From assembly GCA_030649835.1 (NCBI GenBank), contig JAUSES010000013.1:9317-73316 (forward strand): a stretch of 64,000 nucleotides of DNA, given 5' to 3'. Below are positions 15,287 through 61,221 of the stretch, piece by piece. The position numbers and the translations under genes are program-made. This DNA comes from a bacterium. Its GTDB lineage: Bacteria > Patescibacteriota > Minisyncoccia > Phycocordibacterales > UBA1550. How positions within the stretch are numbered: position 1 is the stretch's first letter; every line of letters begins with the position of its first letter. Below the pieces are notes generated by a model, which was not told where the DNA came from, did no database searches, and was given only the letters and a program-made list of their open reading frames with translations.

Positions 15287-15324
15287 GTAAATAATTGACA
15301 TACAGTCAGTTATTTATTTTGTGC

Positions 15325-15458: not shown

Positions 15459-15553
15459 TGATAGTTGAAAGCCTGTAAAGTCCTTAAGGTCAAAAAGTGA
15501 ATGCATTTTTGCAATCACTTTTGACTTTACACTTTGGACTTTTGACTGTTTGT

Positions 15554-18058: not shown

Positions 18059-18151
18059 TCGGGCACCACGTAGAGATTCCACTTAGTAGCGAAAGCGAAC
18101 GGTGGGATTTTTTTGTTTCTCTTTGTTAAAAATATTTGTTACAATTAGTTT

Positions 18152-18832
18152 ATGATTTACTTCGATAATGTCTACAAGGTTTATCCTGATGGTACTAAAG
18201 CGCTTGATGGAGTGACGCTTTCGGTGAAGCAGGGTGAATTTGTTTCCATCGTGGGGCACTCAGGCGCGGGCAAGACAACCCTCGTAAAACTTATTTTAGG
18301 AGAAGACCACCCCACCGAGGGGAGTGTTTCTTTTGATTCGGTGAACCTCAGAAAAATAAAGTCAAAGGACGTGCCGAAGCTCCGCCGTCGCATCGGCGTC
18401 ATCTTTCAGGACTTCCGACTTCTTCCCAACAAGACTGCTTACGAAAATGTGGCCTTTGCAATGGAGGTCGCTGGCAAGACTGATGATGAAATAGCATCAG
18501 ATGTACCCCACGTGCTGGAGCTCGTAGACCTTACCAAGAAAATGTGGAACTTTCCGCGCCAGCTTTCTGGGGGGGAGCTTCAGCGCGTAGCGATAGCACG
18601 CGCTATTGTAAACCAGCCCGACCTCATCATTGCCGATGAGCCCACGGGCAACCTTGACCCCATCAACACCTACGAAATCGTGCAGATTTTGAAGAAAATT
18701 AACGACATGGGAACGACGGTTGTTTTAACCACGCACAACAAAGGCGTGGTGGAGGCATTGGGGAAGCGGGTCATTACGATGGATCATGGGAAGATTACTA
18801 GGGACGACTCCACGGGCAAATACGCGTTGTAG
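18152..18832 (+). CDS. ftsE: Cell-division ABC ATPase FtsE.
   Basis: Walker A GHSGAGKTT, ABC signature LSGGELQRVAIARA and Walker B IIADEP. TACAAT lies 11 nt upstream of the ATG. Confidence 0.85.
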   Translation: MIYFDNVYKVYPDGTKALDGVTLSVKQGEFVSIVGHSGAGKTTLVKLILGEDHPTEGSVSFDSVNLRKIKSKDVPKLRRRIGVIFQDFRLLPNKTAYENVAFAMEVAGKTDDEIASDVPHVLELVDLTKKMWNFPRQLSGGELQRVAIARAIVNQPDLIIADEPTGNLDPINTYEIVQILKKINDMGTTVVLTTHNKGVVEALGKRVITMDHGKITRDDSTGKYAL

Positions 18833-24707: not shown

Positions 24708-24712
24708 ATATT

Positions 24713-24781
24713 GCGGGTTGGTGTAATGGTAGCACGTCGCCCTCTGGAGGCGAAAATTGGGGTTCGAGCCCCTGACCCGCA
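24713..24781 (+). tRNA. tRNA-Gln (anticodon CTG).
   Basis: Acceptor stem gcgggtt/gacccgc. Anticodon stem tcgcc/ggcga with loop cUCUGga. T-loop TTCGAGC. Discriminator A. The exact ends are uncertain by ±2 nt. Confidence 0.7.
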
Positions 24782-24833
24782 GCTAAGTTGAGCTAAGTAT
24801 TGAAGCCCTAGACGCAACAGAATCAACAATATT

Positions 24834-33818: not shown

Positions 33819-35574
33819 TGCAAAAACAAAGACGGCACTATTGTTCCTATTTGTCTTCATAATATTTGGAGTAGTTTTTGGTTTGACATCGATAAAAAAT
33901 AACAGGACTGAAATTATATACCACCAGTCTCAGTGGAATGAATATGCCCCCGAGATAGAAAGGGCGGTTAAGACAGAACAATTAATAGAGCCACTTAACC
34001 TAGAGCATATCTATGGTGGTGTTGTTTCTCATCACATCCCAACGACCATACCCCAATTAGTTAAGTTCTATAGTCGTCTAAAGCGTACCCAACCTGTTAA
34101 GAACCTCATCGTCATTGGACCCGATCATATTGACGCAGGCAAGGCACCTATAACAGTATCGAATGCTAGTTTTTTCACTGCCTACGGTGAGGTTAGGCCA
34201 ATAGATGGTTTAGCTTCAAAATTACAGGATGCAAAATTAGCCAATATCGACGAATCTCCATTTGACCCAGAACATTCTGTTGGTTCCCAGATATTAGTTA
34301 TTAGTAAGATTTTCCCTGGAGCCAAAGTAACGCCGATTATTCTTCGATCAGATACCACCAAAGATCATGCAGAGGCATTGGGGAAAATGCTCTCAACACT
34401 CATGGATGATGAGACCGTACTTATTGCAAGTGTGGATTTTTCGCACTATCTTCCAACTGATCAAGCAATGCCTCTCGACCAGATTTCTGGAGAAGTAGTA
34501 CGCAATCTTGATCTCGGAGCTCTTTCTCTAGTCACCGCAGACTCTGGGAAATCTACGGCAGTTTTTATGGAAGCGATGAATGGGAAGAAAGCCATTGATA
34601 CAGATGATCTAGTAATTTTAAATACAAACGATCTTATGCAGAACTCGGACTATACAACGGGGTATGTGTTTGGTTTTTGGGGCATTAAGAATAAAGTTCT
34701 AGCACAAAATAATAGTAACGAAACCTCAACGCTTATTTTTGTTGGTGACATCATGCTCTCGCGTGAGATCAATAATATAATGAATAAGAATAGTGATTGG
34801 CGTTACCCATTTCTAAAGACAGCCGATTTTTTGAAAAATGCTGACCTCACCTTTGGAAACCTAGAGGGACCCATTTCAAGAAATGGAGTTAAAGTAGGAA
34901 GTATATATTCTTTTAAGGCAGACCCTCGATCAGTCGAGGGGCTTTTGTACTCTGGTTTCGATGTCTTGTCGGTAGCCAACAATCATATTTGGGATTATGG
35001 CGCTGAAGCGTTTGGAGATACTCTCAAAATCCTTAAAGATAACGGCATAAGTTATATAGGAGGAGGGCTATCCTATGAAGAGGCCCATATGCCTGTTATC
35101 AGGGAGATTAGAGGAGCGAAAATCGCATATCTAGGTTATACAAACTTACTTTCGCTCTCTCTTGGAAACAAGAACTCAAAACCGGCAATTGCTTTTCCGG
35201 ACAAAGATCAAATAATTCTTGATGTGCAAAAGGCAAAAATGCACGCTGATATTGTAATAGTTTCTTTTCACTGGGGCGACGAATATGAAACACAGCACAA
35301 CTCTTTTCAAGAAGAATTAGCGCACGCTACTATTGATGCGGGCGCACACTTAGTAGTGGGTCATCACCCTCATGTCATACAAGAGATAGAAAAATATAAT
35401 GGAGGATATATCGCCTATAGTTTAGGAAATTTTGTCTTCGATCAGAATTTTTCAGAGGACACCAAGTCCGGTCTGGTATTGACGGTTGCTCTAAGGGATA
35501 AAAAAATTGTTGAAATTAGGAAGCACATAATTAAATTTACACCCTCATACCAGCCATTTCTCGTAATTGAGTAG
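33793..35574 (+). CDS. Fusion protein: MEMO1/AmmeMemoRadiSam-B-like domain plus a CapA (poly-gamma-glutamate synthesis, metallophosphatase) domain.
   Basis: N-terminal half GGVVSHHIPT…VIGPDHID…FDPEHSVGSQ is Memo-like. C-terminal half LIFVGDIML…GNLEGP…VANNHIWDYG…HWGDEY…VVGHHPH is CapA/PgsA-like. The start overlaps the A2M gene end by 26 nt. Confidence 0.55.
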   Translation: MKIQLPLNNAKTKTALLFLFVFIIFGVVFGLTSIKNNRTEIIYHQSQWNEYAPEIERAVKTEQLIEPLNLEHIYGGVVSHHIPTTIPQLVKFYSRLKRTQPVKNLIVIGPDHIDAGKAPITVSNASFFTAYGEVRPIDGLASKLQDAKLANIDESPFDPEHSVGSQILVISKIFPGAKVTPIILRSDTTKDHAEALGKMLSTLMDDETVLIASVDFSHYLPTDQAMPLDQISGEVVRNLDLGALSLVTADSGKSTAVFMEAMNGKKAIDTDDLVILNTNDLMQNSDYTTGYVFGFWGIKNKVLAQNNSNETSTLIFVGDIMLSREINNIMNKNSDWRYPFLKTADFLKNADLTFGNLEGPISRNGVKVGSIYSFKADPRSVEGLLYSGFDVLSVANNHIWDYGAEAFGDTLKILKDNGISYIGGGLSYEEAHMPVIREIRGAKIAYLGYTNLLSLSLGNKNSKPAIAFPDKDQIILDVQKAKMHADIVIVSFHWGDEYETQHNSFQEELAHATIDAGAHLVVGHHPHVIQEIEKYNGGYIAYSLGNFVFDQNFSEDTKSGLVLTVALRDKKIVEIRKHIIKFTPSYQPFLVIE

Positions 35575-35613
35575 CCCACACAAGGACTAATATGCTAGAA
35601 TTGCAAGAACATC

Positions 35614-36843
35614 ATGACAAAAACTATAAGACTTTGGTATCTCTATGACTTTGCAAACTCATTTGCTTCGATAGTTTTGATTTTTTACTACCCTCTTATG
35701 CTTGCAGAAAGAGGTGCGAGCAATATTTGGATTGGTGTTTCGGCATCAATTTCCACGGGGATACTTCTCATAGTGTTACCGTATCTCGGCGCGTACTCAG
35801 ACAGAACAGGAAGGAGATTTATTTTTATAAAAATTGCAGCTATTTTAATGGTTGTATCGTTATTTGTGCTTGCATTTCTAATGCAAAATATAGATGTTTT
35901 TAGTGTGCCAGTATTAATAATAGTCTCGTTTTTTTACGTGTTATTTCAGGTTAGCTTTCAGGGTTCATTTGTATTCTACTCGGCAATGTTGCGGGGTATA
36001 ACAACAACTGAAAATAACGCAAAAGTGTCAGGGGTAGGTCTCGGTCTCGGACAATTAGGAAACGCTGTTGCTTTGGGAATAATCGGACCCATCATTGGGT
36101 CTTCACTTGTAATCATCGGACTAAGCGGAAAACCCATTGCCCTATTTCTTGGTGGGGTGATGTTTGCAATAATTTCAATTCCGTTTTTGAAACAGAAAGA
36201 CTTGAAAAATGATATAGAAAAAGTAGGCTTTTCTTACAAGGCCTTTCTTAAAGAAGTATTTTTAGAAAAAAGAATATTCTATTTTTTGATAGGATATTCG
36301 CTACTTGCAGATGCAATTCTTACTTTTCAATTATATTTAACCCTTTATGTAACAAAAGTGTTTGATTTTTCTGACACATTAACAACGTACGCGGGAATAG
36401 TTGCCCTACTTTTCGCGGTCATGGGTGGATTTACGGCAAGCAAGTTTGCATATAAGTTAAGGGATAAAGAAAAGGCATTAAGAGCATCAAGTCTTTTCTA
36501 CGCCGTCGCTTTTTTAATTCTTGCACTCGTCCCAAATACCCCCATTTTAGTATTTTTTGCTCTAGCGTTGGGTGGCATCGCTTTCGGTCTACTGTTTTCG
36601 TTGGCAAGATGCGTTTATTCTGAAATCTCTCCACAAAACAAACAGGGCGAATTTTTTAGTTTGTATACGGTGTTTGAACGAGCCGCATCTATTGTCGGAC
36701 CGTTAGTCTGGCTCCTCACCTTCTATTTACTAAAAGACTTTGGCGAAAATATCCAATACAGGGGATCAATGCTCTTTTTGGTGGTAGTTTGCTTAGCAGG
36801 TTATTATTTCTTAATTAAAAGCAATCGAGCTGTCAAAGTGTAA
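35614..36843 (+). CDS. MFS transporter.
   Basis: 12 predicted TM helices. The motif GAYSDRTGRR sits after TM2. Confidence 0.7.
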   Translation: MTKTIRLWYLYDFANSFASIVLIFYYPLMLAERGASNIWIGVSASISTGILLIVLPYLGAYSDRTGRRFIFIKIAAILMVVSLFVLAFLMQNIDVFSVPVLIIVSFFYVLFQVSFQGSFVFYSAMLRGITTTENNAKVSGVGLGLGQLGNAVALGIIGPIIGSSLVIIGLSGKPIALFLGGVMFAIISIPFLKQKDLKNDIEKVGFSYKAFLKEVFLEKRIFYFLIGYSLLADAILTFQLYLTLYVTKVFDFSDTLTTYAGIVALLFAVMGGFTASKFAYKLRDKEKALRASSLFYAVAFLILALVPNTPILVFFALALGGIAFGLLFSLARCVYSEISPQNKQGEFFSLYTVFERAASIVGPLVWLLTFYLLKDFGENIQYRGSMLFLVVVCLAGYYFLIKSNRAVKV

Positions 36844-36882: not shown

Positions 36883-36918
36883 TGCTAAAATAACCATAAT
36901 GATTCGGAACGTTATGCG
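36883..36918 (+). repeat. 36-nt repeat, copy 2, spanning the cyoA promoter and start codon.
   Basis: tgctaaaataaccataATGattcggaacgttatgcg. The cyoA protein begins MIRNVMR. Confidence 0.8.
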
Positions 36919-37795
36919 GGGGATATTGGTAATTGCTATTTTGGGACTGGCAACATTTTTATGGGTCTATATGAGTACGCACAATATGGGCGTCTTTAAT
37001 CCTAAGGGGGTTATTGCGCTTGCGGAAAAAGATTTGATTGTTACCACGACACTCCTCATGCTCATTGTGGTCATTCCAGTGTTCGTGCTACTTGCAGCGT
37101 TCATTTGGAGATACAGGGCAACGAACACAAAAGCAACATACACTCCCGACTGGAGCGGGAGTAAGATTTTGGAAACAATCTGGTGGGCTATTCCCACGGC
37201 AATTATTATTGCACTCGGAATCATTACATGGAAAAGCACGCATGCGCTTAACCCGTACACGCCCCTTGTTTCAAATGTTCCGCCGATTACCATTGAGGTC
37301 GTAGCGCTAGACTGGAAGTGGCTTTTTATTTACCCAGAGCAAAATATTGCTACGGTAAATTTTGTGCAGTTTCCCGTGGGGACACCGGTCAATTTTAAAA
37401 TTACGGGTGATGCGCCCATGAATTCATTTTGGATTCCCCAGCTTGGAGGACAAATATATGCGATGGCTGGAATGAACACAAAGCTTCACTTAATGGCTAG
37501 TGAAGCGGGGGAGTACGCCGGGCTCTCGGCCAACTACAGTGGTGCGGGATTTTCTGGAATGAAGTTTACGGCAAAGGCGAGCACGCAGGAAGAGTTTGAC
37601 GCGTGGGTAGAGACAGTGCGTCAATCGCCAATTACTCTAAGTCTCAGTGAATACGATGAGCTTGCACAAAAAAGCCGAAATAATCCAGTAACGTATTATT
37701 CATCTGCCGAAGAAAATTTGTATGGTAAAATAATAATGAAATACATGGAACCAAGAGGAATTTTACCACCAGCTATGCACGAAATGACAAGATAA
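36899..37795 (+). CDS. cyoA: Cytochrome bo3 ubiquinol oxidase subunit II.
   Basis: Two N-terminal TM helices plus a cupredoxin-like domain lacking the CuA ligands. Long stretches (WKWLFIYPEQNIATVNF…MNSFWIPQLGGQIYAMAGMNTKLHL…YSGAGFSGMKF) resemble E. coli CyoA as I recall it from memory. Confidence 0.8.
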   Translation: MIRNVMRGILVIAILGLATFLWVYMSTHNMGVFNPKGVIALAEKDLIVTTTLLMLIVVIPVFVLLAAFIWRYRATNTKATYTPDWSGSKILETIWWAIPTAIIIALGIITWKSTHALNPYTPLVSNVPPITIEVVALDWKWLFIYPEQNIATVNFVQFPVGTPVNFKITGDAPMNSFWIPQLGGQIYAMAGMNTKLHLMASEAGEYAGLSANYSGAGFSGMKFTAKASTQEEFDAWVETVRQSPITLSLSEYDELAQKSRNNPVTYYSSAEENLYGKIIMKYMEPRGILPPAMHEMTR

Positions 37796-37842
37796 TTTTT
37801 TGCTTACGGTATTTAGTGTTTTGATATATAATTCATGAGTAT

Positions 37843-40719
37843 ATGATTTCTTTACGTAATTTTGCCCTGACACTGCTTGTTTTTCTCTTGCCTTTTTCAT
37901 TGACGAATGTTGCTTCTGCGCAAGTGGCAAGTCTTCCATCTGGGACAAGGGTAGATTATCCGGTGGGGGACGGGCCTATTGGTATTGCATTTGATAACAT
38001 AACAAACTCGGTATGGGTAACAAATGCCTACACTAGCACCCTTAGTAAGGTGAATATTTTTGATGGTACCAGAATTGACTATGTTGCTGGAATAAATCCG
38101 CGTGGTATCGCTTTTGACGGTGTTACAAATTCTGTATGGGTGGCAAATTCTGGCTCTAATACTGTTAGCAAGGTAAACATTTACACAGGCATAAAAACTG
38201 ATTATCCGGTCGCAATAGAGCCATTTGATATTGCTTTCGATAATGTTACAAACTCGGTTTGGGTTACAACTGGTGGTACCACAGGGATAATTAGTAAAGT
38301 AGACATTTTTACTGGCGCAAGGGTTGATTTTTATAATTGGTATTATCCGCGAGGTGTTGTCTTTGATAGTGTTACAAATTCTATATGGACAGGAAATTAT
38401 TATGCAGCTATTAGTAAGATAAATATATTTAATGGAACAAGAATAGATTATCCAACAGGATTAGGCAAGGAACAGATGTATGGAATTGCTTTTGATAACT
38501 TTAATAATTCCATCTGGGCAGGGATATCTTCTGCAAGCGTAATTACCAAAGTAAATGTTTTTACCGGAGAAATGACTGAGTATGTTGTTAAAGCAGCTCC
38601 ATATGGCGCCATTTTTGACAACACCACTAATTCAATATGGGTAACAAGTTATTCATTTAATACTGTTAGTAAAATAGATGTTCTAACTGGTACAAGAGTT
38701 GATTATCCAGTAGGCGGAGAGCCCTACGATATCGTTTTTGATAGTGTGACAGATTCTGTATGGGTAACAAATGTTGCCTCCAGCACTATTAGTAAAATAG
38801 CAATTGGAGCACCTCCTCAACATTTGCCCACTCTTTCTACCCTCGTACAACTTAAGTCAGATGGAGTAATGTCAATTGCAGAAGGTAGCGTTACGACTGA
38901 ATCAACCGCGGTTTTTAAGGCAACTCTTTCAGACGTAGATAATGATGTAGCTAAACTTCAAGTAGAATTAAAAGAATTAAGCCAACAGTTTGATGGAACA
39001 AATCTTTTGGAAAGTGGTTTTGTAGCATCAGGGAGCACTGCAACAACATCAAAAGAAATAATTGCCGACGGACAGTATCACTGGCGCGCACGCGCGGTAG
39101 ACGACAATGGAAATATGAGCGATTGGCAGGAGTTTGGTGCTTTTGGGAATATGGATTTTAAGGTGAAGACCGTCCCGCTGTATACGCAGAGACTATCAGA
39201 GTTTCCTTCAAGGACAGCGACTGAAGGTTGGGCAGGATTAGATTATGCAGCTGGGTCCGCCGGTAATTATAGCTGTGGTTCCACTATTGCTGGATGTGGT
39301 TGCGCCATCTCTTCATCTGTAATGATTATGCGCTTTCATGATATTACGGTGGCTGTTGATGGTCTTGAAGTAGAACCTAAAAATATAAATAATTGGCTCA
39401 ATACACATAATGGATACGACAACGGAAATGTTAATTGGAAAAAGGTCTCTGAATATTCTAAAAATCTAAATGGTCTTGCACGATTACAATTTGACAAAAT
39501 AATTCGTTTTAGAGATACGGTTACTCTTGATCAATATCTTGAGACTGGTCGACCTGCTATTCTTTATAGCAAAACCTTCGGTTCCCATTTTTTAGTGGCT
39601 GATGGCAAGCTTGCCAACACCTATACTATCAAAGACCCAGCTCGATATAATACAAAGAACCTTAACGACACAAGGATCGGTTCTTTTATTAAAAATTATA
39701 ACAATAATTTTGACGGCCTTCGATTGTATTCCCCTGTTCTTACTGCTATGAAGGGAATGTCGTTCAGCCTGGGTTCTCCCGCAGAACTTTTAATTATAGA
39801 CCCACTTGGCCGCAGATTAGGGAAAGACCCCACAACAGGGATTCTCTACGAGGAGATTCCAGAAGGTTCGTATTATCAAGAGGGGATAAGCAACGCCGAG
39901 CTAGAAAACCCCCCGCAAGCACACGAAAATAAGAATATTTGGATCCCCAATCCAGAAGTAGGGCAATACATAACGAAAGTTATCGGTACGGATACAGGGT
40001 CATACACCCTTAATTCCTTAGCCTATGACTATAACGGAGATTCTCATTCTCAAACATTGACCGCAACAACGCAACCTGCTTTTGTTGATGAATATCATCT
40101 CAGTGTGTCAACAGTAGGTCAACCGATAAACCTTGACCTCGCGCTCACCTCACAAGGGATTGATGAATGCCCCACTTTGAGTGGTACCAGCCTCGGCTGT
40201 CCTGCAAAGATTGATTTTTTGAGTATGGAAAAGATTAGTAATTCTGCAGGAGCGCCAGAGCTAATCAGTCCTCTCGGAGAAACTCGTTATACCGCCCCAG
40301 TGGTTTCAGGGGAACGGGGCACGACCGAGGTCAAAGCAAAGCTTTATGATGAGGGCAAACTTCTTGCTCTTTTGAATACGCGTTCAGTGTCATCTGACCA
40401 GCTTTGCGCAATTTTTGACGACACCTCAAAAGATAGTGCGTTACTCAATCACCTAACTAAAACAACAGATAAAGACGGCAAATTCTCTTTTGGTGTTTCA
40501 TCTACAACAGTTTCCCCTACGCTGATAGAAAGCGTTAGGGAAACTGTCGCGGGGCAATCAAAAAGAGTTTGTATCGCAGAATCAGTTTCCCCGCGAGATT
40601 TTGTTAACGGCATTGCTTCAAAAGAGGTAAGTATGATTACGCTTACTGTCAGAAATACAAACAACGGTATTTTGGTCAAAAAGACCGCGGGAAGTAACTC
40701 GCAAACGATAGACTACTAA
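37843..40719 (+). CDS. Secreted beta-propeller repeat protein (NHL/YVTN-like repeats x8) with an Ig/Fn3-like region and a C-terminal papain-like (peptidase C39-like) domain.
   Basis: Signal peptide. A roughly 40-aa repeat (GIAFDxVTNSVWVxNxxxxTVSKxNIxTG). Later NYSCGSTIAGCGCAIS (Cys) … GSHFLVADG (His) is typical of the C39-like fold. Confidence 0.5.
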   Translation: MISLRNFALTLLVFLLPFSLTNVASAQVASLPSGTRVDYPVGDGPIGIAFDNITNSVWVTNAYTSTLSKVNIFDGTRIDYVAGINPRGIAFDGVTNSVWVANSGSNTVSKVNIYTGIKTDYPVAIEPFDIAFDNVTNSVWVTTGGTTGIISKVDIFTGARVDFYNWYYPRGVVFDSVTNSIWTGNYYAAISKINIFNGTRIDYPTGLGKEQMYGIAFDNFNNSIWAGISSASVITKVNVFTGEMTEYVVKAAPYGAIFDNTTNSIWVTSYSFNTVSKIDVLTGTRVDYPVGGEPYDIVFDSVTDSVWVTNVASSTISKIAIGAPPQHLPTLSTLVQLKSDGVMSIAEGSVTTESTAVFKATLSDVDNDVAKLQVELKELSQQFDGTNLLESGFVASGSTATTSKEIIADGQYHWRARAVDDNGNMSDWQEFGAFGNMDFKVKTVPLYTQRLSEFPSRTATEGWAGLDYAAGSAGNYSCGSTIAGCGCAISSSVMIMRFHDITVAVDGLEVEPKNINNWLNTHNGYDNGNVNWKKVSEYSKNLNGLARLQFDKIIRFRDTVTLDQYLETGRPAILYSKTFGSHFLVADGKLANTYTIKDPARYNTKNLNDTRIGSFIKNYNNNFDGLRLYSPVLTAMKGMSFSLGSPAELLIIDPLGRRLGKDPTTGILYEEIPEGSYYQEGISNAELENPPQAHENKNIWIPNPEVGQYITKVIGTDTGSYTLNSLAYDYNGDSHSQTLTATTQPAFVDEYHLSVSTVGQPINLDLALTSQGIDECPTLSGTSLGCPAKIDFLSMEKISNSAGAPELISPLGETRYTAPVVSGERGTTEVKAKLYDEGKLLALLNTRSVSSDQLCAIFDDTSKDSALLNHLTKTTDKDGKFSFGVSSTTVSPTLIESVRETVAGQSKRVCIAESVSPRDFVNGIASKEVSMITLTVRNTNNGILVKKTAGSNSQTIDY

Positions 40720-40720
40720 T

Positions 40721-41800
40721 ATGAAATTTAATAAAATAGTTTTTGTTGCAGGATCACTTGTGGTGCTTGTTGTGAGTATAATAGTATACTATTTTTTCTA
40801 TCCTGAAACTGGAATAAATCGTGAACAGAAATTTGTAAAAGACAATCTGACAAAAGAAGATTGCCTTCATGAAAATTTAATTGCCGTCTTTGAAAATGAT
40901 AAATCTGATTATGTTGGTAAAGTCAAGGTAATTATAAGAGATAAACAATACAACAAGATTATTTCAAGTTTTGATATTGATGATGTTGCTAAAAGAAATT
41001 ATCATCCTGTAGAAATACACGAATGTGGGGTTTACGCTCTGAAGAGTTTTAATTATGATTATAAGTCCTCAAAAACACTCTCAGGGTTTAGTAGAGAACT
41101 TTGGTTCTACGATTATAGTGGTAACGGAAAATTACTGGTTGTTTTTTCTGGCGAAAGCGCATCTGGAGTTCCAGATGCGGGGGGAATTCCAGGAAGACTT
41201 TATTCATTTAACTATTCATACGACTTCCGTGTCTCACCACAAGAAACCCATGTAATTCTACTTCGAGGATACCTCGAATCTTCTGACTATGCGCTTATCG
41301 TTAAGGATTTAGAAACTCTTAAAGATGTTTTTGTGCTCCCAATAGCAGATATTGAAAGGGAAAATCCTGATATCATCGGTGATGTTGGACTCAAGGGTTG
41401 GTCTCGCGATGGTAGATATTTTTGGGCTGGAATGGCTTATGGTGCAAACACACTCAGTTTTATTCGTATTGATATAAAAACTATGAGCTTCGCCGTGTTT
41501 GCTGCACCCAAAGATGTCCTTGGTGGTGACGCTTTGAATATTGAAAAAGGACTCATCACCGTTCATCCTGGAAATGTGTGGTATGGGATCGCTGATGTGA
41601 CAGAACAAGAAAAAGCTGAACGTCGTAAGCAAGGTGCTGGCACCGAACTCTATATTGAAAATCTTTTCACCAAAAAGCGCGAGTTTGTTGCTAAAACTGA
41701 TGAGCCACTTTATTACTTTAAACCAAAATGGCTCTCTGATACCGAACTCCAATATGAACTGCCTAACGGGGAGAGAAAGATATATAAAATTAATATATAA
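40721..41800 (+). CDS. Hypothetical membrane-anchored protein.
   Basis: N-terminal TM helix IVFVAGSLVVLVVSIIVYYFF. No family recognised. Confidence 0.35.
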   Translation: MKFNKIVFVAGSLVVLVVSIIVYYFFYPETGINREQKFVKDNLTKEDCLHENLIAVFENDKSDYVGKVKVIIRDKQYNKIISSFDIDDVAKRNYHPVEIHECGVYALKSFNYDYKSSKTLSGFSRELWFYDYSGNGKLLVVFSGESASGVPDAGGIPGRLYSFNYSYDFRVSPQETHVILLRGYLESSDYALIVKDLETLKDVFVLPIADIERENPDIIGDVGLKGWSRDGRYFWAGMAYGANTLSFIRIDIKTMSFAVFAAPKDVLGGDALNIEKGLITVHPGNVWYGIADVTEQEKAERRKQGAGTELYIENLFTKKREFVAKTDEPLYYFKPKWLSDTELQYELPNGERKIYKINI

Positions 41801-41814
41801 TATAATTAGAAATT

Positions 41815-42852
41815 ATGCCAACACAATTTTATAAAAAATATATTTTCCTGCTCTTGAGTATCGTTATAGTAGTTTCGTTTGTAATTATTAGTAGAAATTA
41901 TTTCATATCAAAATGGTTACCACAGGACCCATCCTTAGTTGAGGGAACATCTTTATCAAAGATGCCTACTTCTACTCAGATGATTGATACAACCTCTCAG
42001 GTTGCCCAAAAAACACCAACTTGTATATCCACCAAAAGTAATAACGTTACTGATTCTCTAGATGTACCTAAATTATTCCCTGATTTTAAATGGACAAAAG
42101 TAAGTAAAACCGTGATGGAAGAAAAAGAGTTCAGCAGTGGATACATAAGTTTTCGCAAATTCTCAGATCAAGATTATACAAAAATTGATAGCTTAAAAGG
42201 CGAAGCATGGTCTATAATTTATGAATATGGAAGTCCCCCTGATTATAGCATTAATGAAAAATTTGATAGTTCTTTTGCTGAAAAGTTTCCAAAAGAAGAT
42301 TGGGTTTGGAAAACAAACGTGCATGGTTATGAGATAATGGGGGGCGCCGCAGATGGCCCCACCTCAGGCGTTTATGGGCTTGTTAAAATTGAGAACGGGA
42401 AACTACGCGCCGTTGTTATTGATAGAAGCGGCAGTTATAAAGGAACATTTCCCGATGATGCTGAATTAATCGCAACCACCTATACAATTTTTTTATCAGA
42501 CCCTGTGTCTTTGTCAGAAGTTTTACCGAATTATGCCCCTGCTCCTTATCTTGGCGTACTGCATACGGCGGTCAATCACGAAATTCAAAGGGAAAAAAAT
42601 CTTTCTGTTGATTATGGCGCTTTGGTTATTACCGACAGTTCTTTTGAGTCGGCAGTGATGACTGATTCACCAGCTTCAAAGGCGGGTATTAAAGATGGAG
42701 ATGTTATCCTTGCGGTGAATAATCAGCCCATAAATCAAACTAACCAATTAACAAAACTATTGTCTCAATATTGTCCGAGTGACATAATTATACTTCACGT
42801 ACTTTCACATAGTATAGAAAAAGATGTTTCTGTTACACTGGCAGAATATTGA
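41815..42852 (+). CDS. Membrane-anchored PDZ-domain protein.
   Basis: N-terminal TM helix. A C-terminal PDZ-like segment (…ASKAGIKDGDVILAVNNQPINQTNQL…). Confidence 0.5.
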   Translation: MPTQFYKKYIFLLLSIVIVVSFVIISRNYFISKWLPQDPSLVEGTSLSKMPTSTQMIDTTSQVAQKTPTCISTKSNNVTDSLDVPKLFPDFKWTKVSKTVMEEKEFSSGYISFRKFSDQDYTKIDSLKGEAWSIIYEYGSPPDYSINEKFDSSFAEKFPKEDWVWKTNVHGYEIMGGAADGPTSGVYGLVKIENGKLRAVVIDRSGSYKGTFPDDAELIATTYTIFLSDPVSLSEVLPNYAPAPYLGVLHTAVNHEIQREKNLSVDYGALVITDSSFESAVMTDSPASKAGIKDGDVILAVNNQPINQTNQLTKLLSQYCPSDIIILHVLSHSIEKDVSVTLAEY

Positions 42853-42901
42853 TTTATAAAAATTTCTTGAATTTTTACTGCCGTGATAACATTAAGTAAA
42901 T

Positions 42902-44863
42902 ATGTTTGGAAATTTAACACTCTCTGCGATTCCTACGGACCCGATTACGATTGGTGGTGGTTTTGTAATGGTTCTTTCAATATCGACGATTATCGGACTG
43001 TTGACCTATTTTAAAAAGTGGAAGTGGCTGTGGACGGAGTGGCTCACGTCAGTTGATCACAAAAAAATCGGTGTGATGTATATCATTCTCGCATTTGTGA
43101 TGATGCTCCGTGGTTTTTCTGATGCGATTATGATGCGCCTCCAGCAGGCTCTCTCGGTGGGGGATGCAGTAGGGTATTTACCACCAGAACACTACGACCA
43201 AATATTTACTGCGCACGGCGTGATTATGATTTTCTTTGTGGCGATGCCGTTAATGTTTGGGCTCATCAACTGGGCAGTGCCACTCCAGATAGGTGCGCGT
43301 GACGTTGCGTTTCCTTTTTTAAACTCCATGAGTTTGTGGCTCACGATTACTGGTGCGATGCTCGTGAACCTTTCGCTCGTGGTGGGGGAGTTTGCAGCGA
43401 CAGGATGGCTCGCGTACCCACCTCTTTCGGGGATTGTCTACAGCCCCGGCGTGGGTGTGGACTACTATATTTGGGCGCTCCAAATAGCGGGGGTGGGAAG
43501 CTTGCTTTCGGGAATCAACTTTTTTGTGACTATTCTTATGATGCGCGCGCAAGGAATGAATATGATGCGTATGCCGGTTTTCACGTGGACAGTTTTTTGC
43601 AGTATGATTTTGGTGATAATTTCTTTCCCTATTCTCACGGCGACACTCGGCATGCTCTCCCTTGACCGATTGCTCGGGATGCACTTTTTCACATCGGATT
43701 TTGGGGGAAATGCCATGATGTATGTAAATCTCATTTGGGCGTGGGGGCATCCTGAGGTGTACATTCTCGTTTTGCCTGCGTTTGGAATTTTTTCAGAAGT
43801 TGTCGCCACTTTTTCACGTAAGAAACTTTTTGGATACACCACGATGATATGGGCTACTATCGCTATTACCTTTCTCTCATTCGTGGTGTGGGTGCATCAC
43901 TTTTTCACAATGGGCGCAGGTGCAAATGTAAATGCGTTTTTTGGCATCATGACGATGATTATCGCCATTCCTACCGGCGTGAAAATTTTCAACTGGCTCT
44001 TCACTATGTTTCGCGGGCGCATCATTTTTGCTTCACCGATGCTCTGGATGATTGGTTTCGTGGTGACTTTCACCATTGGGGGCATGACGGGAGTACTCCT
44101 CGCGGTGCCGGGGGCGGATTTCCAGCTTCACAATAGTTTGTTTCTTATTGCGCATTTTCACAATACTATTATTGGCGGAGTGGTGTTTGGATATTTTGCA
44201 GGGCTCACGTATTGGTGGTCAAAGATTTTTGGATTCACGCTAAATGAGCGCCTTGGCAAAGCTGCATTTTGGCACTGGATCATCGGCTTTTTTGTTACGT
44301 TTACACCACTTTATATTCTGGGGCTTATGGGAATGACGAGAAGGCTCAACAATATTCCTGCAGGCACTGGCTGGGAAACACTTCTATATGTAGCCGGCAT
44401 TGGCGCACTGATTATTGGTATCGGAATTGTTCTGCAAATTTTACAGCTCATCGTAAGTATCCGTGACCGTGAAAAAAACAGAGACACGACCGGCGACCCG
44501 TGGGATGCGCGCACCCTAGAGTGGTCCACATCATCCCCTCCGCCATTTTATAATTTTGCGGTGATTCCTGTGGTGTGGGGACGAAGTCCGTTTTGGGGGA
44601 TGAAGAACAACCCGACAGAACGAGAGCTAAACCCACAGTACCAGGATATTCACATGCCAAAAAATACCGGGATGGGTTTGTATATTGCAATCGCGAGTTT
44701 CTTCGTTGGGTTTGGTTTAGTGTGGCACATATGGTGGCTTGCGGGGCTTGGTTTTGTGGCGGTCATCGCGCTCGTCATTATTCGTTCTTTTGATTATGAT
44801 ACGGAGTATGTGGTAACGGCGGAGGAGATAGCGCGTATTGAAAATGCGCGTAAGCAAAAGTAA
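42902..44863 (+). CDS. cyoB: Cytochrome bo3 ubiquinol oxidase subunit I (heme-copper oxidase).
   Basis: 653 aa. [22 protein letters not shown] and the His ligands are present (HHFFTMG, LIAHFHN). It shows very high similarity along its length to proteobacterial CyoB as I recall it. Confidence 0.9.
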
Positions 44864-44864
44864 T

Positions 44865-45491
44865 ATGAATACAGAAACACTAAATCAAAATCTCACCGCC
44901 ACGCATGAGGCACACCAGACGCGTGGTGCAAAAGCCCTGTTTGGCTTCTGGACGTACATTATGAGCGACGTACTTCTGTTTGGCGCAATTTTTGCATCAT
45001 ACGCAGTGCTCCATGACAACATCTTTGGTGGGCCTTCAGCAAAAGAGCTCTTTAGTATGCCGTTTGTTTTAGTAGAGACACTCGTGCTTCTCGCAAGCAG
45101 TTTCACTTTTGGGCTCGCATCGCTACATGCGCATCACCATGCGGAGGGCAGGAATTGTATACCGAAAGTGGTGAAGTGGCTTGGCATAACATTCCTTCTT
45201 GGAGCAGTCTTTTTAGGAATGGAGTTGTTTGAATTTGCAAAACTCCTTGAAGAGGGGAACGGATGGCAGAGAAGTGGTTTTTTGTCGGCGTTCTTTACAC
45301 TTGTGGGCACCCACGGTCTTCACGTGACGGCGGGGCTCATTTGGATGGGGAGTGTGACCGCGCAGGTCGTGCGTCACGGCATTACCGAGAGGACGATAAA
45401 CAAAATATCCACACTCGGTTTGTTCTGGCATTTCCTTGATATCGTATGGATATTCATTTTCACGTTTGTGTATTTAATGGGCGCAATATAA
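44865..45491 (+). CDS. cyoC: Cytochrome bo3 ubiquinol oxidase subunit III.
   Basis: Five TM helices. The start is taken at the in-frame ATG just after the cyoB stop; the listed ORF begins at 44838. Confidence 0.75.
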   Translation: MNTETLNQNLTATHEAHQTRGAKALFGFWTYIMSDVLLFGAIFASYAVLHDNIFGGPSAKELFSMPFVLVETLVLLASSFTFGLASLHAHHHAEGRNCIPKVVKWLGITFLLGAVFLGMELFEFAKLLEEGNGWQRSGFLSAFFTLVGTHGLHVTAGLIWMGSVTAQVVRHGITERTINKISTLGLFWHFLDIVWIFIFTFVYLMGAI

Positions 45492-45512
45492 CGAACTCAT
45501 ATCAAAAATATT

Positions 45513-45893
45513 ATGGATACTAACGATTTTAAAATAATTGATGAGGAATACGAAGCAGGGCGCCTTGCTTTGCGATCGTACGTGACAGGTTTTGTGCTGT
45601 CCATCATACTCACACTCATTCCGTATTTCATAGTGGTAAATAAAATGTTCGGAGTACAAAGTATGGTTGTGGCCATTGTCCTCTTTGGCGTGACCCAGCT
45701 TTTTGTTCAGGTTGTCTTTTTCCTCCACCTTCATAAAAAATTCAAACCTAAATGGAACATGGTTATTTTTACGTTCACAGTACTCATTGTTTCTATATTG
45801 GTCGTAGGTACACTTTGGATTATGTCCAACCTCAACTACAACACTATGCATAGAACCCCCGCGACGTTAAATGAAGGATATATTCCACAGTAG
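45513..45893 (+). CDS. cyoD: Cytochrome bo3 ubiquinol oxidase subunit IV.
   Basis: 126 aa with three TM helices. Positioned after cyoC. Confidence 0.65.
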   Translation: MDTNDFKIIDEEYEAGRLALRSYVTGFVLSIILTLIPYFIVVNKMFGVQSMVVAIVLFGVTQLFVQVVFFLHLHKKFKPKWNMVIFTFTVLIVSILVVGTLWIMSNLNYNTMHRTPATLNEGYIPQ

Positions 45894-45899
45894 AGGGGG

Positions 45900-45934
45900 T
45901 AGAATGTAGAATTTAGAATATTGAATATAGAATG
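45900..45934 (+). repeat. Tandem heptamer array TAGAATG-TAGAATT-TAGAATA-TTGAATA-TAGAATG running into the ATG at 45932.
   Basis: Read directly. The units resemble -10 boxes (TAGAAT). It is the complement orientation of the ATTCTAA arrays. Confidence 0.75.
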
Positions 45935-46237
45935 AAAAAAACTCTTTTTAAAAACGATAAATATAAAAAAACGCGTGGTGGATACTCGCGACTTTTGAAT
46001 ATCTCTTGTGAAAAATGCAGGGAACATATTTGCAATTATCAAAAAGACGGGCCAGGTAATTTACGTCGACTATATCGTGATCGCATCAGCAATCCGAAGA
46101 TCTCTGTTTCAGGAAAGAACCTCACTTGCTCGAGAGGTCATCTTCTAGGTGTAGGAATTATTTATGATAAAGAAAAACGACCAGCGTTTCGTTTATTTGT
46201 TGATTCGGTCACGAAAAAGATAATTAGATCTGTCTAA
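45932..46237 (+). CDS. Hypothetical small Cys-containing protein.
   Basis: CEKCREHIC…C..H pattern. No family recognised. Confidence 0.3.
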   Translation: MKKTLFKNDKYKKTRGGYSRLLNISCEKCREHICNYQKDGPGNLRRLYRDRISNPKISVSGKNLTCSRGHLLGVGIIYDKEKRPAFRLFVDSVTKKIIRSV

Positions 46238-46242
46238 TCGTT

Positions 46243-46824
46243 ATGGAAAATATACAAGTATATATCGGATATGCGGCGGGAATACTCGGGTTCATCCCAT
46301 TTATTTTGCTGATCATCTCAATGAGAAAGGGTATAACAAAACCAAATCTAGCTGGATGGGTTTTGTACACTGTTGCGATGGTGATGATTGTGGCTAGTAG
46401 TATCGCACTTAATGCATGGCAAGCTGTGTGGCTTGCCATGGCCTATGTTGTCGGACAATCTTTAGTAATCGCTGTCTCCTTCAAGACTGGTTATTTTTCC
46501 TTTTCTCGTTTTGATTATTGGTGCTTATCCATTTCTTTTTTAAGCCTGATACTCTGGATTTATACAAATAATCCGCTATATGCACTGGTATTAAATGTCA
46601 TTGTTGATGGGCTTGGAACATTTGCGATATCACGAAAGTTGTATTTGCATCCAGGAACTGAAGATACAACGGCATGGGTTGTTGGATTCCTCGTAGCCTT
46701 GCTTAATGTGTTTGCTGTTGCTTCTTTTGATATTAGTAACGCACTTTATCCTATATACATAGTACTTGCGTGTGCTTTAATTGCTGGGTTAAGTTTGAGA
46801 CGAGTTAATGCTATAAATACTTAA
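46243..46824 (+). CDS. Hypothetical polytopic membrane protein.
   Basis: Six predicted TM helices. Confidence 0.35.
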   Translation: MENIQVYIGYAAGILGFIPFILLIISMRKGITKPNLAGWVLYTVAMVMIVASSIALNAWQAVWLAMAYVVGQSLVIAVSFKTGYFSFSRFDYWCLSISFLSLILWIYTNNPLYALVLNVIVDGLGTFAISRKLYLHPGTEDTTAWVVGFLVALLNVFAVASFDISNALYPIYIVLACALIAGLSLRRVNAINT

Positions 46825-46826
46825 AT

Positions 46827-47441
46827 ATGAATATTAAGAATTACTTATTTGACTTTGATGGGACGCTTTTTGACACGCAGAAGCTACATGCTGCAGTAGA
46901 ATCTGAGTTGTTTGCTGAAAACGGAATCGCAATGCCACCAGAGGAGATAACTGAAAAATATGCTGGTATTAAAACAGAAGCATTTTTTGCTGAACTTTTG
47001 GGAGACGAGAAACTTGCAAAGACATTGATCGCAAAAAAATGGGAGAAATTAATTCCCCTTGCGCGAACAGCTGAACCTCTGGGTGATCTACATACCCTTT
47101 TTTCCTCACTTAAAGCTAAGGGTCTACTTTTTGGCATTGGCACAGCATCTCCCTTGTCATGGGTTGAGGAAATATTGGCAATAAATAATCTCACACCCTA
47201 CTTTTCAGAAAAATCTATCATTACTGGTGAGATGGTTGAACAAGGGAAGCCTCATCCAGAAACATGGCAAAGATTACAGTGTGGGGTTCCAGGGGAAAAT
47301 TGTCTTGTTGTAGAAGATGGTGTTGCTGGGGTCTTTGCCGCAAAAGCGGCCAACATGAATTACGTAGTCGTTGGGAAACCAAATGATAAATTTCCGGAAG
47401 ATTCAGTCTTTATTCAATCTGTCTCTAGTCTAATAAACTAA
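46827..47441 (+). CDS. HAD-IA hydrolase (beta-phosphoglucomutase/phosphatase-like).
   Basis: Motif I LFDFDGTLFDT. Later motifs GIGTASP and VVEDGVAGVFAAKAANM. Confidence 0.6.
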   Translation: MNIKNYLFDFDGTLFDTQKLHAAVESELFAENGIAMPPEEITEKYAGIKTEAFFAELLGDEKLAKTLIAKKWEKLIPLARTAEPLGDLHTLFSSLKAKGLLFGIGTASPLSWVEEILAINNLTPYFSEKSIITGEMVEQGKPHPETWQRLQCGVPGENCLVVEDGVAGVFAAKAANMNYVVVGKPNDKFPEDSVFIQSVSSLIN

Positions 47442-47442
47442 C

Positions 47443-48297
47443 TTGCTTAAAAACTATTACCAACTCACCAAGCCGGGGATTATTTATGGCAATGCGATTA
47501 CGGTTGTTGCGGGTTTTTTGATTGCGTCGAGGGGGAGTGTTGATTGGTGGCTCTTGCTCGTGACTCTGCTTGGGATTTCGCTCATTATGGCGTCGGGCTG
47601 TGTCTTTAATAATTACATTGACCGTGACATTGATGCTTTGATGGAGCGGACGAAAAATCGTGCGTTGGTGAAGGGTGCGGTGTCCTTGAGAGGCGCACTT
47701 TTTTACGGCGTTTTTTTAGGATCTCTCGGTACTGTCCTTTTATTTTTGTATACAAACACATTGATCGTGCTTGTTGCGCTTGGCGGACTCGTTGCGTATG
47801 TTGGTTTATACAGTTTGCGCTTCAAGCGCACGTCCACGCACGGCACTATCGTAGGAAGTATTTCTGGAGCAGTGCCACCGGTTGTGGGGTATCTTGCAGT
47901 TTCAAATAGTGTCGACCTAGGGGTTGTGATTTTATTTTTTATTCTAGCGCTTTGGCAGATGCCCCATTCATTCGCCATTGCCATATATCGACTCGAGGAT
48001 TATGCAAAGGCAAATATCCCCGTGCTCCCCGTCAAAAAAGGAATTTTTATAACGAAAATACAGATGGTGATTTACATCACACTTTTTATTCTCGCCACAC
48101 TTGCGCTTCCCGTGTTTGGCTATGTAGGCAACGCATATTTCTTTACAATGTCTTTATTTGGCATTGTGTGGCTTACACTTGCAGGAAAAGGTTTTTCTAC
48201 GACCAATGACAAACTCTGGGCTCGCCGTATGTTCATTTTTTCAATCGTAATTCTAACGATTTTTTCTATCATGATTGCGTTTGATGTGGTAAAATAG
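47443..48297 (+). CDS. cyoE: Protoheme IX farnesyltransferase (heme O synthase; UbiA family).
   Basis: NNYIDRDIDALMERTKNRALV (Asp-rich motif). Nine TM helices. Confidence 0.85.
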   Translation: MLKNYYQLTKPGIIYGNAITVVAGFLIASRGSVDWWLLLVTLLGISLIMASGCVFNNYIDRDIDALMERTKNRALVKGAVSLRGALFYGVFLGSLGTVLLFLYTNTLIVLVALGGLVAYVGLYSLRFKRTSTHGTIVGSISGAVPPVVGYLAVSNSVDLGVVILFFILALWQMPHSFAIAIYRLEDYAKANIPVLPVKKGIFITKIQMVIYITLFILATLALPVFGYVGNAYFFTMSLFGIVWLTLAGKGFSTTNDKLWARRMFIFSIVILTIFSIMIAFDVVK

Positions 48298-48303: not shown

Positions 48304-49299
48304 GTGAAAACAAAAAAGAAAGTAAATCAGAACGTAATCATCTATCAGGCAAAGTCTGGGGCTATTGAGCTTCGAGGGGATTTTGGCAAGGATACGGTGT
48401 GGGCGACGCAGGTGCAAATTGCGGGGGCATTTGATGTTGATGTGAGAACAATAAATGAACACATTAAAAATATATACAGAACTGGGGAGTTATCAGAATC
48501 TTCAACTATCCGGAATTTCCGGATAGTTCAAAATGAAGGGAAAAGGGAAATTGAGCGCGATGTGAAACACTATAATCTTGATATGATCCTGTCTGTTGGT
48601 TATCGTGTGAATAGCAAAAAAGCGACAATGTTCCGCCAGTGGGCTACCAAAATCCTGCGTGCGCATATTGTGGATGGCTACACCATAAACCGCACCCGTA
48701 TTGCAAAAAACTACGATGTGTTTATTCAGGCCGTTGCAGATGTAAAGGCGCTACTTCCTGCAAGCACAATGTCCGACACAAAAGACATTCTTGAGCTCGT
48801 GACGCTTTTTGCGGACACGTGGCTTTCGCTTGATGCATACGACAAAGACGAGCTCACTACCAAAGGCGCAACAAAAAAGTCTGTTAAAATTACCGCAGAA
48901 ACATTTGCAAAAGACCTCGCTTTTTTGAAAGAGTCGCTTATTAAAAAAGACGAAGCGACGGATCTTTTTGCCACCGAACGTGAAAAGGGAAGCCTTGCGG
49001 GTATCATCGGCAATGTGATGCAAGCATTTGGTGGCAAAGATATGTATCCAACCGTTGAAGAAAAGGCGGCGCATTTTCTCTATTTCGTTATCAAAAATCA
49101 CCCGTTCCTTGACGGCAACAAGCGTAGTGGCGCCTATGCTTTTGTGTGGTTCCTCACAAAGGCAAAAGTCCTTGATACGACCCGCATGTCACCACCTGCC
49201 CTCACTGCCATAACCCTCCTCGTTGCAGAAAGTGACCCTACTCACAAAGACAAAATGATTGGCCTTGTGCTTACGATGCTAAAACGCGGGAAGAAATAA
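48304..49299 (+). CDS. RhuM-family N-terminal domain fused to a Fic/Doc-family domain.
   Basis: The N-terminal region matches RhuM-like proteins (YQAKSGAIELRGDF…VQIAGAFDV). The C-terminal HPFLDGNKRSGAYAF fits the Doc motif HxFx(D/N)GNKR. Confidence 0.6.
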   Translation: MKTKKKVNQNVIIYQAKSGAIELRGDFGKDTVWATQVQIAGAFDVDVRTINEHIKNIYRTGELSESSTIRNFRIVQNEGKREIERDVKHYNLDMILSVGYRVNSKKATMFRQWATKILRAHIVDGYTINRTRIAKNYDVFIQAVADVKALLPASTMSDTKDILELVTLFADTWLSLDAYDKDELTTKGATKKSVKITAETFAKDLAFLKESLIKKDEATDLFATEREKGSLAGIIGNVMQAFGGKDMYPTVEEKAAHFLYFVIKNHPFLDGNKRSGAYAFVWFLTKAKVLDTTRMSPPALTAITLLVAESDPTHKDKMIGLVLTMLKRGKK

Positions 49300-61210: not shown

Positions 61211-61221
61211 TGAGAAATAAT

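Follow-up and report, generated by a model that had tools for sequence, protein, structure and literature searches.

Bacteria of the Candidate Phyla Radiation (CPR, or Patescibacteria) are generally seen as fermentative organisms without a respiratory chain, and operons encoding a cytochrome bo3 quinol oxidase (cyo operons) are the main documented exception. Here, we describe a cyoABCDE locus carried by a 64-kb stretch of DNA (64,000 nucleotides, hereafter the window; positions 9,317 to 73,316 of contig JAUSES010000013.1, assembly GCA_030649835.1). Coordinates are those of the window and the loci used for comparison are designated by L numbers.

The reference enzyme is the bo3 ubiquinol oxidase of E. 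coli, composed of CyoABCD and served by CyoE (PDB 1fft, 6wti, 7cub, 8f68). The window encodes the same five proteins. The aa3-600 menaquinol oxidase QoxABCD from B. subtilis (PDB 6kob) is also an A-type, four-subunit enzyme. Within CPR, cyo operons were described in Parcubacteria, Saccharibacteria and Doudnabacteria (Nelson & Stegen 2015, PMC4508563; Starr et al. 2018, PMC6031116; Beam et al. 2020, PMC7507113; Nicolas et al. 2021, PMC8407418; PMC12577380). These operons are of the same kind and from the same phylum as that of the window, and they share with it an inferred proteobacterial ancestry and the puzzle of the quinone source. It was thus already published that Parcubacteria possess cyoABCDE, that these genes are of proteobacterial ancestry and that quinone synthesis is missing, and O2 scavenging had been put forward as well (PMC4508563, PMC7507113, PMC8407418, PMC6031116). 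Two differences should, however, be noted. The published CPR loci are described with the gene order of E. coli, with at most one extra open reading frame (ORF; PMC8407418), whereas blocks of 5.1 kb and 1.5 kb interrupt the locus of the window. Moreover, in the sub-clade of the window (Paceibacteria), CyoB is only 64-65% identical to its counterparts in Saccharibacteria and in the C7867-007 genome of Nelson & Stegen 2015 (PMC4508563), here L037.

What is new in the window is the positional and compositional residency of the operon in one Paceibacteria sub-lineage, together with a rare split gene order due to a cassette of surface-protein genes. The explanation that we favor, and that we hold to be likely, is that of a CPR host with a complete bo3 oxidase, the operon of which was acquired by an old transfer, then inherited as a resident, and received the surface cassette.

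Integrity of the oxidase

The ORF map of the 64-kb window contains the five cyo genes and both interruptions. The ORF coordinates and the equivalog cut-offs agree with the original prediction, which had described cyoABCDE in this split form. The gene cyoA (36899..37795, plus strand, as are all genes of the locus) encodes quinol oxidase subunit II (TIGR01433, 315.9 bits for a cut-off of 266.2). Since the product has 293 aa in an independent gene call made on an identical sequence, cyoA probably starts at the second ATG, at position 36914. The gene cyoB (42902..44863) encodes catalytic subunit I, which carries heme b and the heme o3-CuB center (TIGR02843, 1116.8 bits for a cut-off of 1020.35). 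Subunit III is encoded by cyoC (44865..45491; TIGR02842, 247.8 bits for a cut-off of 223.75). The corresponding ORF opens at 44838, and the ATG at 44865, just past the cyoB stop, is a more likely start than the TTG at 44838. Finally, cyoD (45513..45893) encodes subunit IV (TIGR02847, 98.5 bits for a cut-off of 81.45) and cyoE (47443..48297) a heme o synthase, or protoheme IX farnesyltransferase (NF003348, 379 bits for a cut-off of 285; TIGR01473, 283.4 for 210.3).

Functional residues of CyoB were read off an alignment to the Salmonella protein, which has the same numbering as that of E. coli. All 15 residues checked are conserved. They include the heme b ligands H106 and H421, the heme o3 ligand H419, the CuB ligands H284, H333 and H334, the cross-linked Tyr288, and residues D135, E286, T359 and K362 of the D- and K-channels. 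The quinol-site residues R71, D75, H98 and Q101 are kept in the window as well as in L081, L083 and L037, while position 98 is occupied by T in CyoB from L025, a Saccharibacteria locus. CyoA possesses the C-terminal COX_ARM motif (Pfam, 9.5e-18) and has no cysteine at all; therefore, it has no CuA center. E. coli CyoA likewise lacks the CuA ligands. It has, however, a lipobox (LSGC), where the window protein shows MSTH and no lipobox cysteine.

The full-length likeness of CyoA and CyoB to the E. coli proteins, pointed out in the original prediction, is borne out by the comparisons. CyoB is 67.0% identical to E. coli CyoB over 646 aligned columns and scores 999 bits against 1fft/8f68 (residues 1-649), and CyoA scores 298 bits against 1fft_B. 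Identities to the enterobacterial proteins of Salmonella are about 52% for CyoA, 52% for CyoC, 42% for CyoD and 53% for CyoE. The window CyoB also scores 737 bits against B. subtilis QoxB, but the window proteins fail the Qox equivalog cut-offs (QoxB, 828 vs 1015; QoxA, 206 vs 241) as well as those of the cytochrome c oxidase families, and CyoA, which passes TIGR01433, fails the CoxB and QoxA models. Moreover, unlike in the QoxABCD system, the partner gene in the window encodes a heme o synthase, and no heme a synthase was seen.

By every sequence criterion used, the locus thus encodes an intact proteobacterial-type cytochrome bo3 quinol oxidase of the A-type heme-copper family, together with a heme o synthase. 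The enzyme is apparently functional. As in E. coli, it would oxidize membrane quinol at the R71/D75/H98/Q101 site, pump protons and, at the heme o3-CuB center, convert O2 to water. The cyo genes of E. coli are contiguous, whereas three genes separate cyoA from cyoB and three others cyoD from cyoE in the window. The absence of a contiguous cyoABCDE operon is a feature of the gene order, not of the enzyme.

Host and origin of the operon

The best homologues of the window CyoB are 73-89% identical to it, and those that are named all belong to Patescibacteria (Minisyncoccia, Yonathbacteria, Parcubacteria GW2011_GWA1_47_8, Pacebacteria/Paceibacterota). Among the matches listed, the first named non-CPR sequence appears at or below 71% identity. 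The named homologues of the 359 aa protein encoded between cyoA and cyoB are all from Patescibacteria, and so are those of the neighboring 958 aa protein, with the exception of one weak Cohnella match. LigA and GatA from the window are 51-55% identical to their counterparts in Parcubacteria C7867-007. From these similarities, we conclude that the predicted host is a Parcubacteria/Paceibacteria-type CPR bacterium. Its genome, first described as AT-rich, is only moderately so, with a GC content of about 42-43% in the window.

A neighbor-joining (NJ) tree was calculated from 163 CyoB sequences, and a rooted version was obtained with B. subtilis QoxB as an outgroup. The window CyoB falls within an 18-member clade (bootstrap 96), the named members of which are all Paceibacteria-type CPR. 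All named CPR sequences, including those of Saccharibacteria and C7867-007, form one group of 79 members (bootstrap 72). In the rooted tree, this CPR group lies inside the proteobacterial CyoB radiation, beside Francisellaceae/Legionella-type sequences. The published maximum-likelihood trees, in which the CPR cyo genes are of proteobacterial ancestry, have a topology in agreement with this one (PMC7507113, PMC8407418). Thus, the operon is of the proteobacterial type, as put forward in the original prediction, and an ultimate proteobacterial ancestry of CPR cyo operons is in line with those trees.

The position of the operon is conserved. It is found at the same chromosomal locus in L081, L171 and L172, the CyoB proteins of which are 81, 84 and 79% identical to that of the window, respectively. 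Upstream, synteny with L081 covers FtsX (88% identity), PyrG (86%) and a PDDEXK nuclease (82%). Downstream, a minus-strand gene for a protein of 336/337 aa (78-82%), a gene for a 208 aa protein and a GDSL lipase gene are syntenic with at least one of L081, L171 and L172, as are the genes for a glyoxalase (83%), PIF1 (86%) and CopA (78%). In the comparison with L081, the Cyo proteins (68-81% identity) are similarly or slightly more diverged than the products of the flanking genes (70-88%).

The composition of the genes leads to the same view. The GC content at third codon positions (GC3) of the cyo genes is 0.46-0.53 (mean 0.488), as compared to 0.27-0.36 for the neighboring genes and to a mean of 0.412 for the other 41 genes of the window (p = 0.018). 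Hence, the claim that the cyo genes are richer in GC than their flanks is numerically true. The contrast vanishes, however, when the seven syntenic core genes are taken as the reference (GC3 0.459; Mann-Whitney p = 0.76), whereas the six inserted genes have a mean GC3 of 0.300 (range 0.27-0.33; p = 0.004). The difference therefore arises because the neighbors, including the insertions, are poor in GC3, and not because the cyo genes are rich. Moreover, the cyo genes have a GC3 of 0.57-0.61 in L083 and of 0.35-0.47 in L081, in each case like their own flanks. As the cyo genes follow the GC3 of each host, they have been ameliorated in each of them.

These data bear on the proposal, made in the original prediction, that the genome acquired the operon directly and comparatively recently from a proteobacterium, which would explain both the E. 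coli-like sequences and the higher GC content. The full-length 67% identity of CyoB to the E. coli protein, the GC3 of the cyo genes above that of the other 41 genes, and the apparent derivation of CPR cyo as a group from proteobacteria (PMC7507113, PMC8407418; NJ tree) go in this direction. However, among the matches listed, more than 45 homologues (73-89% identity) are closer to the window CyoB than any proteobacterial sequence (at most 71%), and the named ones among these homologues all come from CPR. The operon sits at one locus in three relatives, with a GC3 equal to that of the syntenic core and following the host value in each relative. In addition, the Cyo proteins are about equally far from those of Salmonella (42-65%) and from those of the other CPR lineages L037 and L025 (42-65%), which argues for a long residence in CPR. 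A phylogeny within the same phylum and a compositional difference that is not significant are also the two outcomes that the original prediction itself had named as refuting it. A recent acquisition is consequently extremely unlikely. Rather, we propose that the ancestor of the operon entered CPR by an old transfer, from a donor that would probably have resembled a gammaproteobacterium. Afterward, the operon would have been inherited at one locus in the Paceibacteria sub-lineage, its composition adapting to each host genome.

One CyoB sequence labeled as coming from a Verrucomicrobiae metagenome-assembled genome (P0106) nests among the Saccharibacteria sequences, in a small clade with a bootstrap of 92. 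Either its contig comes from CPR and was misbinned, or the gene was transferred once more, out of CPR.

Rarity of the split gene order

The first interruption consists of three plus-strand genes located between cyoA and cyoB. They encode a secreted surface protein of 958 aa (37843..40719), a protein of 359 aa with an N-terminal membrane anchor followed by a beta-propeller (40721..41800), and a protein of 345 aa with an N-terminal membrane anchor and a C-terminal PDZ domain (41815..42852). The frequency of such interruptions was surveyed, among the matches listed, in 164 loci possessing both cyoA and cyoB and in 77 loci for the cyoD-cyoE junction. These loci are mostly distant and largely proteobacterial, and only three of those that came from the survey scans are from named CPR genomes. 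Between cyoA and cyoB, the gap has a median of about 42 bp. The gap reaches 5110 bp in the window and 4090 bp in L083/L084, the next largest being 425 bp. Therefore, only the window genome and one other CPR genome have a kilobase insertion at this junction in the survey. At the cyoD-to-cyoE junction, the median gap is -18 bp, as compared to 1.5 kb in the window.

In L083/L084, an orthologous gene pair occupies the same junction, in the order cyoA-[981]-[362]-cyoB, with identities of 64% and 50% to the window proteins. The PDZ gene is absent from L083, and the genomic context differs from that of the window. The cyo operons closest to that of the window, L082, L171, L081 and L172, have no cassette. 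A repeat search found no target-site duplication or terminal repeat flanking either insertion, the only repeats being internal 123-nt ones within the 958 aa gene. Likewise, comparison in sliding windows revealed no tract recombined from an L083-like donor at the 3' end of cyoA or the 5' end of cyoB. The low-GC3 surface cassette would have been inserted into the cyoA-cyoB spacer, and a second block of three genes between cyoD and cyoE.

Since the contig was assembled from a metagenome, the unusual order could reflect an error of assembly or binning, in which a proteobacterial cyo fragment was chimerically joined to CPR DNA, the insertion marking the joins. An odd ORF fusing NusA to CyoA in L082 suggests that artefacts occur in such data. 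Nevertheless, the independent assembly L085 (Logan SRR13727527), made with a different pipeline, displays the order MFS (major facilitator superfamily)-cyoA-958-359-PDZ-cyoB, with the same junctions and identical proteins. Two more independent assemblies, L083 (JGI) and L084 (ENA), share the arrangement cyoA-[981]-[362]-cyoB. Moreover, the cyo proteins are of the CPR type and synteny is kept on both sides of the operon. The probability of an artefact is thus practically negligible, and we retain an insertion into a resident operon. As for L082, the closest relative of the window (CyoB 89%), its fused ORF (2047-3855) encodes 602 aa, in which NusA is followed by the C-terminal 174 residues of CyoA without the membrane-spanning N-terminus. 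This ORF may stem from a genuine rearrangement or from chimeric assembly.

Alternatively, the insertions may be signs of decay. By uncoupling cyoA from cyoBCD and cyoE, they would lead to a wrong stoichiometry of the subunits in an oxidase that is being lost. The nearly universal contiguity of the operon in the other loci surveyed and the reductive nature of CPR genomes would fit such a scenario, as would the lack of a quinone reductase gene in the window, when L172 has genes for a type II NADH dehydrogenase (NDH-2) and a cytochrome-b-like protein beside cyoA. However, the five cyo ORFs are full length with all catalytic residues conserved, and CyoB is no more diverged than in relatives with uninterrupted operons (89% identity to L082). 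The same split is observed in L083 despite divergence (79% for CyoB, 50-64% for the cassette proteins), which indicates that the arrangement is stable under selection. The short spacers between the genes and the lack of predicted intergenic terminators also argue against uncoupling. Overall, decay of the oxidase is very unlikely, and the evidence is better accounted for by insertion into an operon that stayed intact.

The cassette between cyoA and cyoB

The 958 aa protein was predicted to comprise a signal peptide, a YncE/YVTN-type beta-propeller (residues ~35-320), an Ig/PKD-like domain, a C39-like papain-fold domain (~445-600), a beta-sandwich and a poorly modeled C-terminus. The AlphaFold2 model has a mean confidence (pLDDT) of 79, with values above 90 for residues 40-600. 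The top Foldseek matches are 1l0q, a surface-layer protein with a YVTN propeller and a PKD domain, and E. coli YncE. The blades of the propeller are 41 residues long and are visible in the DNA as the 123-nt repeats mentioned above. Thus, the N-terminal third of the protein corresponds to a propeller with seven or so blades plus an Ig/PKD-like domain, as in the YncE/YVTN proteins (E. coli YncE, 3vgz; archaeal S-layer protein, 1l0q), to which the window protein adds the C39-like domain and about 350 residues without family assignment. The C39-like domain scores just below the Pfam cut-offs (PF03412, 20.7 vs 22; PF13529, 20.1 vs 24), and precomputed matches are faint or weak. Its alpha/beta fold is modeled at high confidence, and the protein contains a conserved CGCAI(T/S)S motif.

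The family of the 359 aa protein corresponds to no Pfam model. Its members have two invariant cysteines and usually follow a large secreted protein. In the 345 aa protein, Pfam detects a PDZ_6 domain (4e-10) and a hydrophobic segment is found at residues 5-32. Matches to the HtrA family are confined to the PDZ part, and the Pfam and NCBIfam scans detected no protease domain. GC3 is 0.325 for the 958 aa gene and 0.283 for the PDZ gene. PHROGs were uninformative and gave no sign of a phage origin of the inserted genes.

Relatives of these genes are found in a variety of contexts. In L086 and L088, orthologues of the 958 aa gene, accompanied in L086 by a 357 aa partner, come after PilC and a pilin in PilB-PilC-pilin clusters, whereas the window copy is outside any pilus cluster. 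A PilY1-like role in type IV pili is a candidate function for the 958 aa protein, the family of which is found in other contexts as well. In L170, members of the 359 aa family follow other large secreted proteins near cell-wall genes. The short contig L169 (2.9 kb, 1-2889) carries what remains of a 958-like gene (97% identity over 35 residues, 81% over the final 99), a gene for a 350 aa protein (60%) and a PDZ gene (45%). This trio is not followed by cyoB, so that the three inserted genes also occur together elsewhere. Such a spread of contexts indicates that they form a cell-surface cassette, mobile among CPR genomes, rather than an accessory specific to the oxidase.

The window itself has a type IV pilus cluster (651-7623), which encodes a PilB/T-like ATPase, PilC, a prepilin peptidase, one pilin and three additional N_methyl pilins. 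An ORF that has the domain of an IS200-like Y1 transposase (3952-4767) breaks up the cluster. As the orthologues in L086 and L088 sit in clusters of this kind, the cassette may have been relocated from this pilus cluster of the window.

The block between cyoD and cyoE

The second interruption also consists of three plus-strand genes, with a GC3 of 0.28-0.33. The first one (45932..46237) encodes a basic, Cys-rich protein of 101 aa, which has a CxxC...C..H pattern and may bind zinc. The second one (46243..46824) encodes a protein of 193 aa with about six membrane spans, and the third one (46827..47441) a HAD-family phosphatase of 204 aa (HAD_2, 9.6e-24). The 101 aa and 193 aa proteins match no Pfam, NCBIfam or PHROG family, and none of the three genes has a tblastn match (E <= 1e-5) in L081, L083, L171 or L172. 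A role of the small ORFs after cyoD as an assembly factor of the SURF1 or CtaG type was considered and set aside, as no family match supports it.

Expression and physiology

The eleven genes from cyoA to cyoE, including the insertions, are on one strand with spacers of 1-49 nt, and every terminator-like hairpin predicted on the plus strand lies inside a coding region. It is therefore plausible, judging from this layout, that all of them are transcribed together from upstream of cyoA.

Unlike for E. coli, synthesis of ubiquinone or heme is not known in the host. CPR bacteria were reported to be devoid of quinone synthesis and heme pathways (PMC4508563, PMC8407418), and both quinone and heme would be scavenged from a host. 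The same gaps accompany the other CPR cyo operons, for which either scavenged quinone with a minimal NDH-2-to-bo3 chain or O2 scavenging was proposed (PMC4508563, PMC6031116, PMC8407418, PMC12577380, PMC11665869). The O2-detoxification role suggested for the window oxidase is thus a published hypothesis for CPR (PMC6031116, citing earlier Saccharibacteria work). The enzyme may serve either in energy conservation or in O2 scavenging, and the genes of the window favor neither.

Several observations on neighboring genes touch upon the electron donor. In L172 (and also in L173), genes for a cytochrome-b-like protein (487 aa) and an NDH-2-like protein (Pyr_redox_2, 428 aa) are located directly upstream of cyoA (5056-7917), and a UbiE-like methyltransferase gene is found downstream. 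This set of genes suggests a minimal NADH-to-O2 chain in some members of the clade. In L083, genes for VKOR and DsbA (17623-18803) are located 3.6 kb downstream of cyoE, and a quinone-linked route of disulfide formation could feed electrons to the oxidase in this organism. No VKOR, DsbA, DoxX or cytochrome-b-like gene, all of which accompany cyo in relatives, was found in the window, nor was a UbiE-like one. The window contains genes for a CopA-type copper P-type ATPase followed by a three-domain multicopper oxidase (59057-62826), in a region with a local GC peak of 0.54 (60-61 kb); copA is syntenic in L081. This pair could be relevant to the handling of copper for CuB or to another O2-using activity.

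In this context, the cassette might be kept in the operon for co-expression with the oxidase, either as part of a host-contact or envelope machinery, which might also give access to host quinone or heme, or because the folding of its disulfide-bonded secreted proteins would be tied to quinone and O2. Two diverged genomes that differ in their flanks have the same gene pair at this very junction, which is consistent with this idea, as is the view that CPR bacteria, reported to lack quinone synthesis, scavenge it (PMC4508563, PMC6031116, PMC8407418). The VKOR and DsbA genes of L083 and the two invariant cysteines of the 359 aa family may be added. However, most of the sampled members of the cassette families are away from cyo: those of L086 and L088 belong to pilus clusters, those of L170 are close to cell-wall genes and those of L169 are found elsewhere. 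The closest cyo operons (L082, L171, L081, L172) work without a cassette. In addition, the beta-propeller folds are generic and devoid of redox cofactor motifs, and no VKOR, DsbA or DoxX is encoded in the window. A functional coupling is therefore very unlikely. If true, a possible reason for it would be that the episymbiont needs quinone or heme from a host membrane for a working enzyme.

The likely explanation is still that of a CPR host and a complete bo3 oxidase, with an old transfer, resident inheritance and an insertion of the surface cassette. A number of points nevertheless weigh against parts of it. First, the taxonomy of the host is built on the names of homologues, and no rRNA gene (Rfam) or ribosomal protein (scanned ORFs) was found in the 64-kb window. 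Second, the bootstraps of the NJ backbone are only 20-41, and that of the all-CPR grouping falls from 72 to 35 with the outgroup. Because this backbone is weak, the direction and number of the ancient transfers rest mainly on the published trees. Third, L083 lies outside the CyoB clade that contains the window, L082, L171 and L081, and the other sampled members of this clade have no insertion. The arrangement may go back to a single old insertion that was precisely lost several times, to two insertions that occurred independently, or to a transfer of the operon with its cassette between CPR lineages. Fourth, promoter-like matches are not enriched over shuffled sequences (45 vs 35 +/- 5), and internal promoters may be present. 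Finally, with regard to the electron donor, no gene for a quinone reductase, quinone biosynthesis, NDH-2 or heme biosynthesis was found in the 64-kb window.

Other genes of the window

Besides the type IV pilus cluster and the cyo locus, the window contains genes for LigA, GatA, a release factor, FtsX, PyrG, the PIF1 helicase, the copper ATPase and the multicopper oxidase, and many of its proteins match no family. Directly upstream of cyoA, a block of genes with a GC3 of 0.32-0.36 (28926-36843) encodes an alpha-2-macroglobulin-like protein of 1630 aa, a Memo/PGA_cap-like protein of 593 aa and an MFS transporter. No match to any of them came up in L081 and L172, two syntenic relatives, and the block resembles a further insertion specific to this lineage. 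On the other side of the operon, a gene for a RhuM/Fic-domain protein of 331 aa (48304-49299) starts 6 nt past cyoE. L081 also has a Fic protein, encoded on the other side of its cyo operon and without detectable similarity to that of the window at E <= 1e-3. Six tRNA genes were identified. Two tRNA-Met, tRNA-Asp, tRNA-Thr-GGT and tRNA-Thr-CGT genes are loosely clustered (13677-15629), and a tRNA-Gln gene is separate (24712-24783). No other Rfam family was found in the window.

Concluding remarks

Each well-resolved cyo locus helps to gauge the stability of this trait in CPR. The current picture of CPR respiration is unchanged by the locus described here. In one Paceibacteria sub-lineage, however, the oxidase is seen to be long-standing, conserved in position and ameliorated, and not transient. 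Moreover, the cyo operon tolerates the insertion of unrelated surface-protein genes without visible decay.

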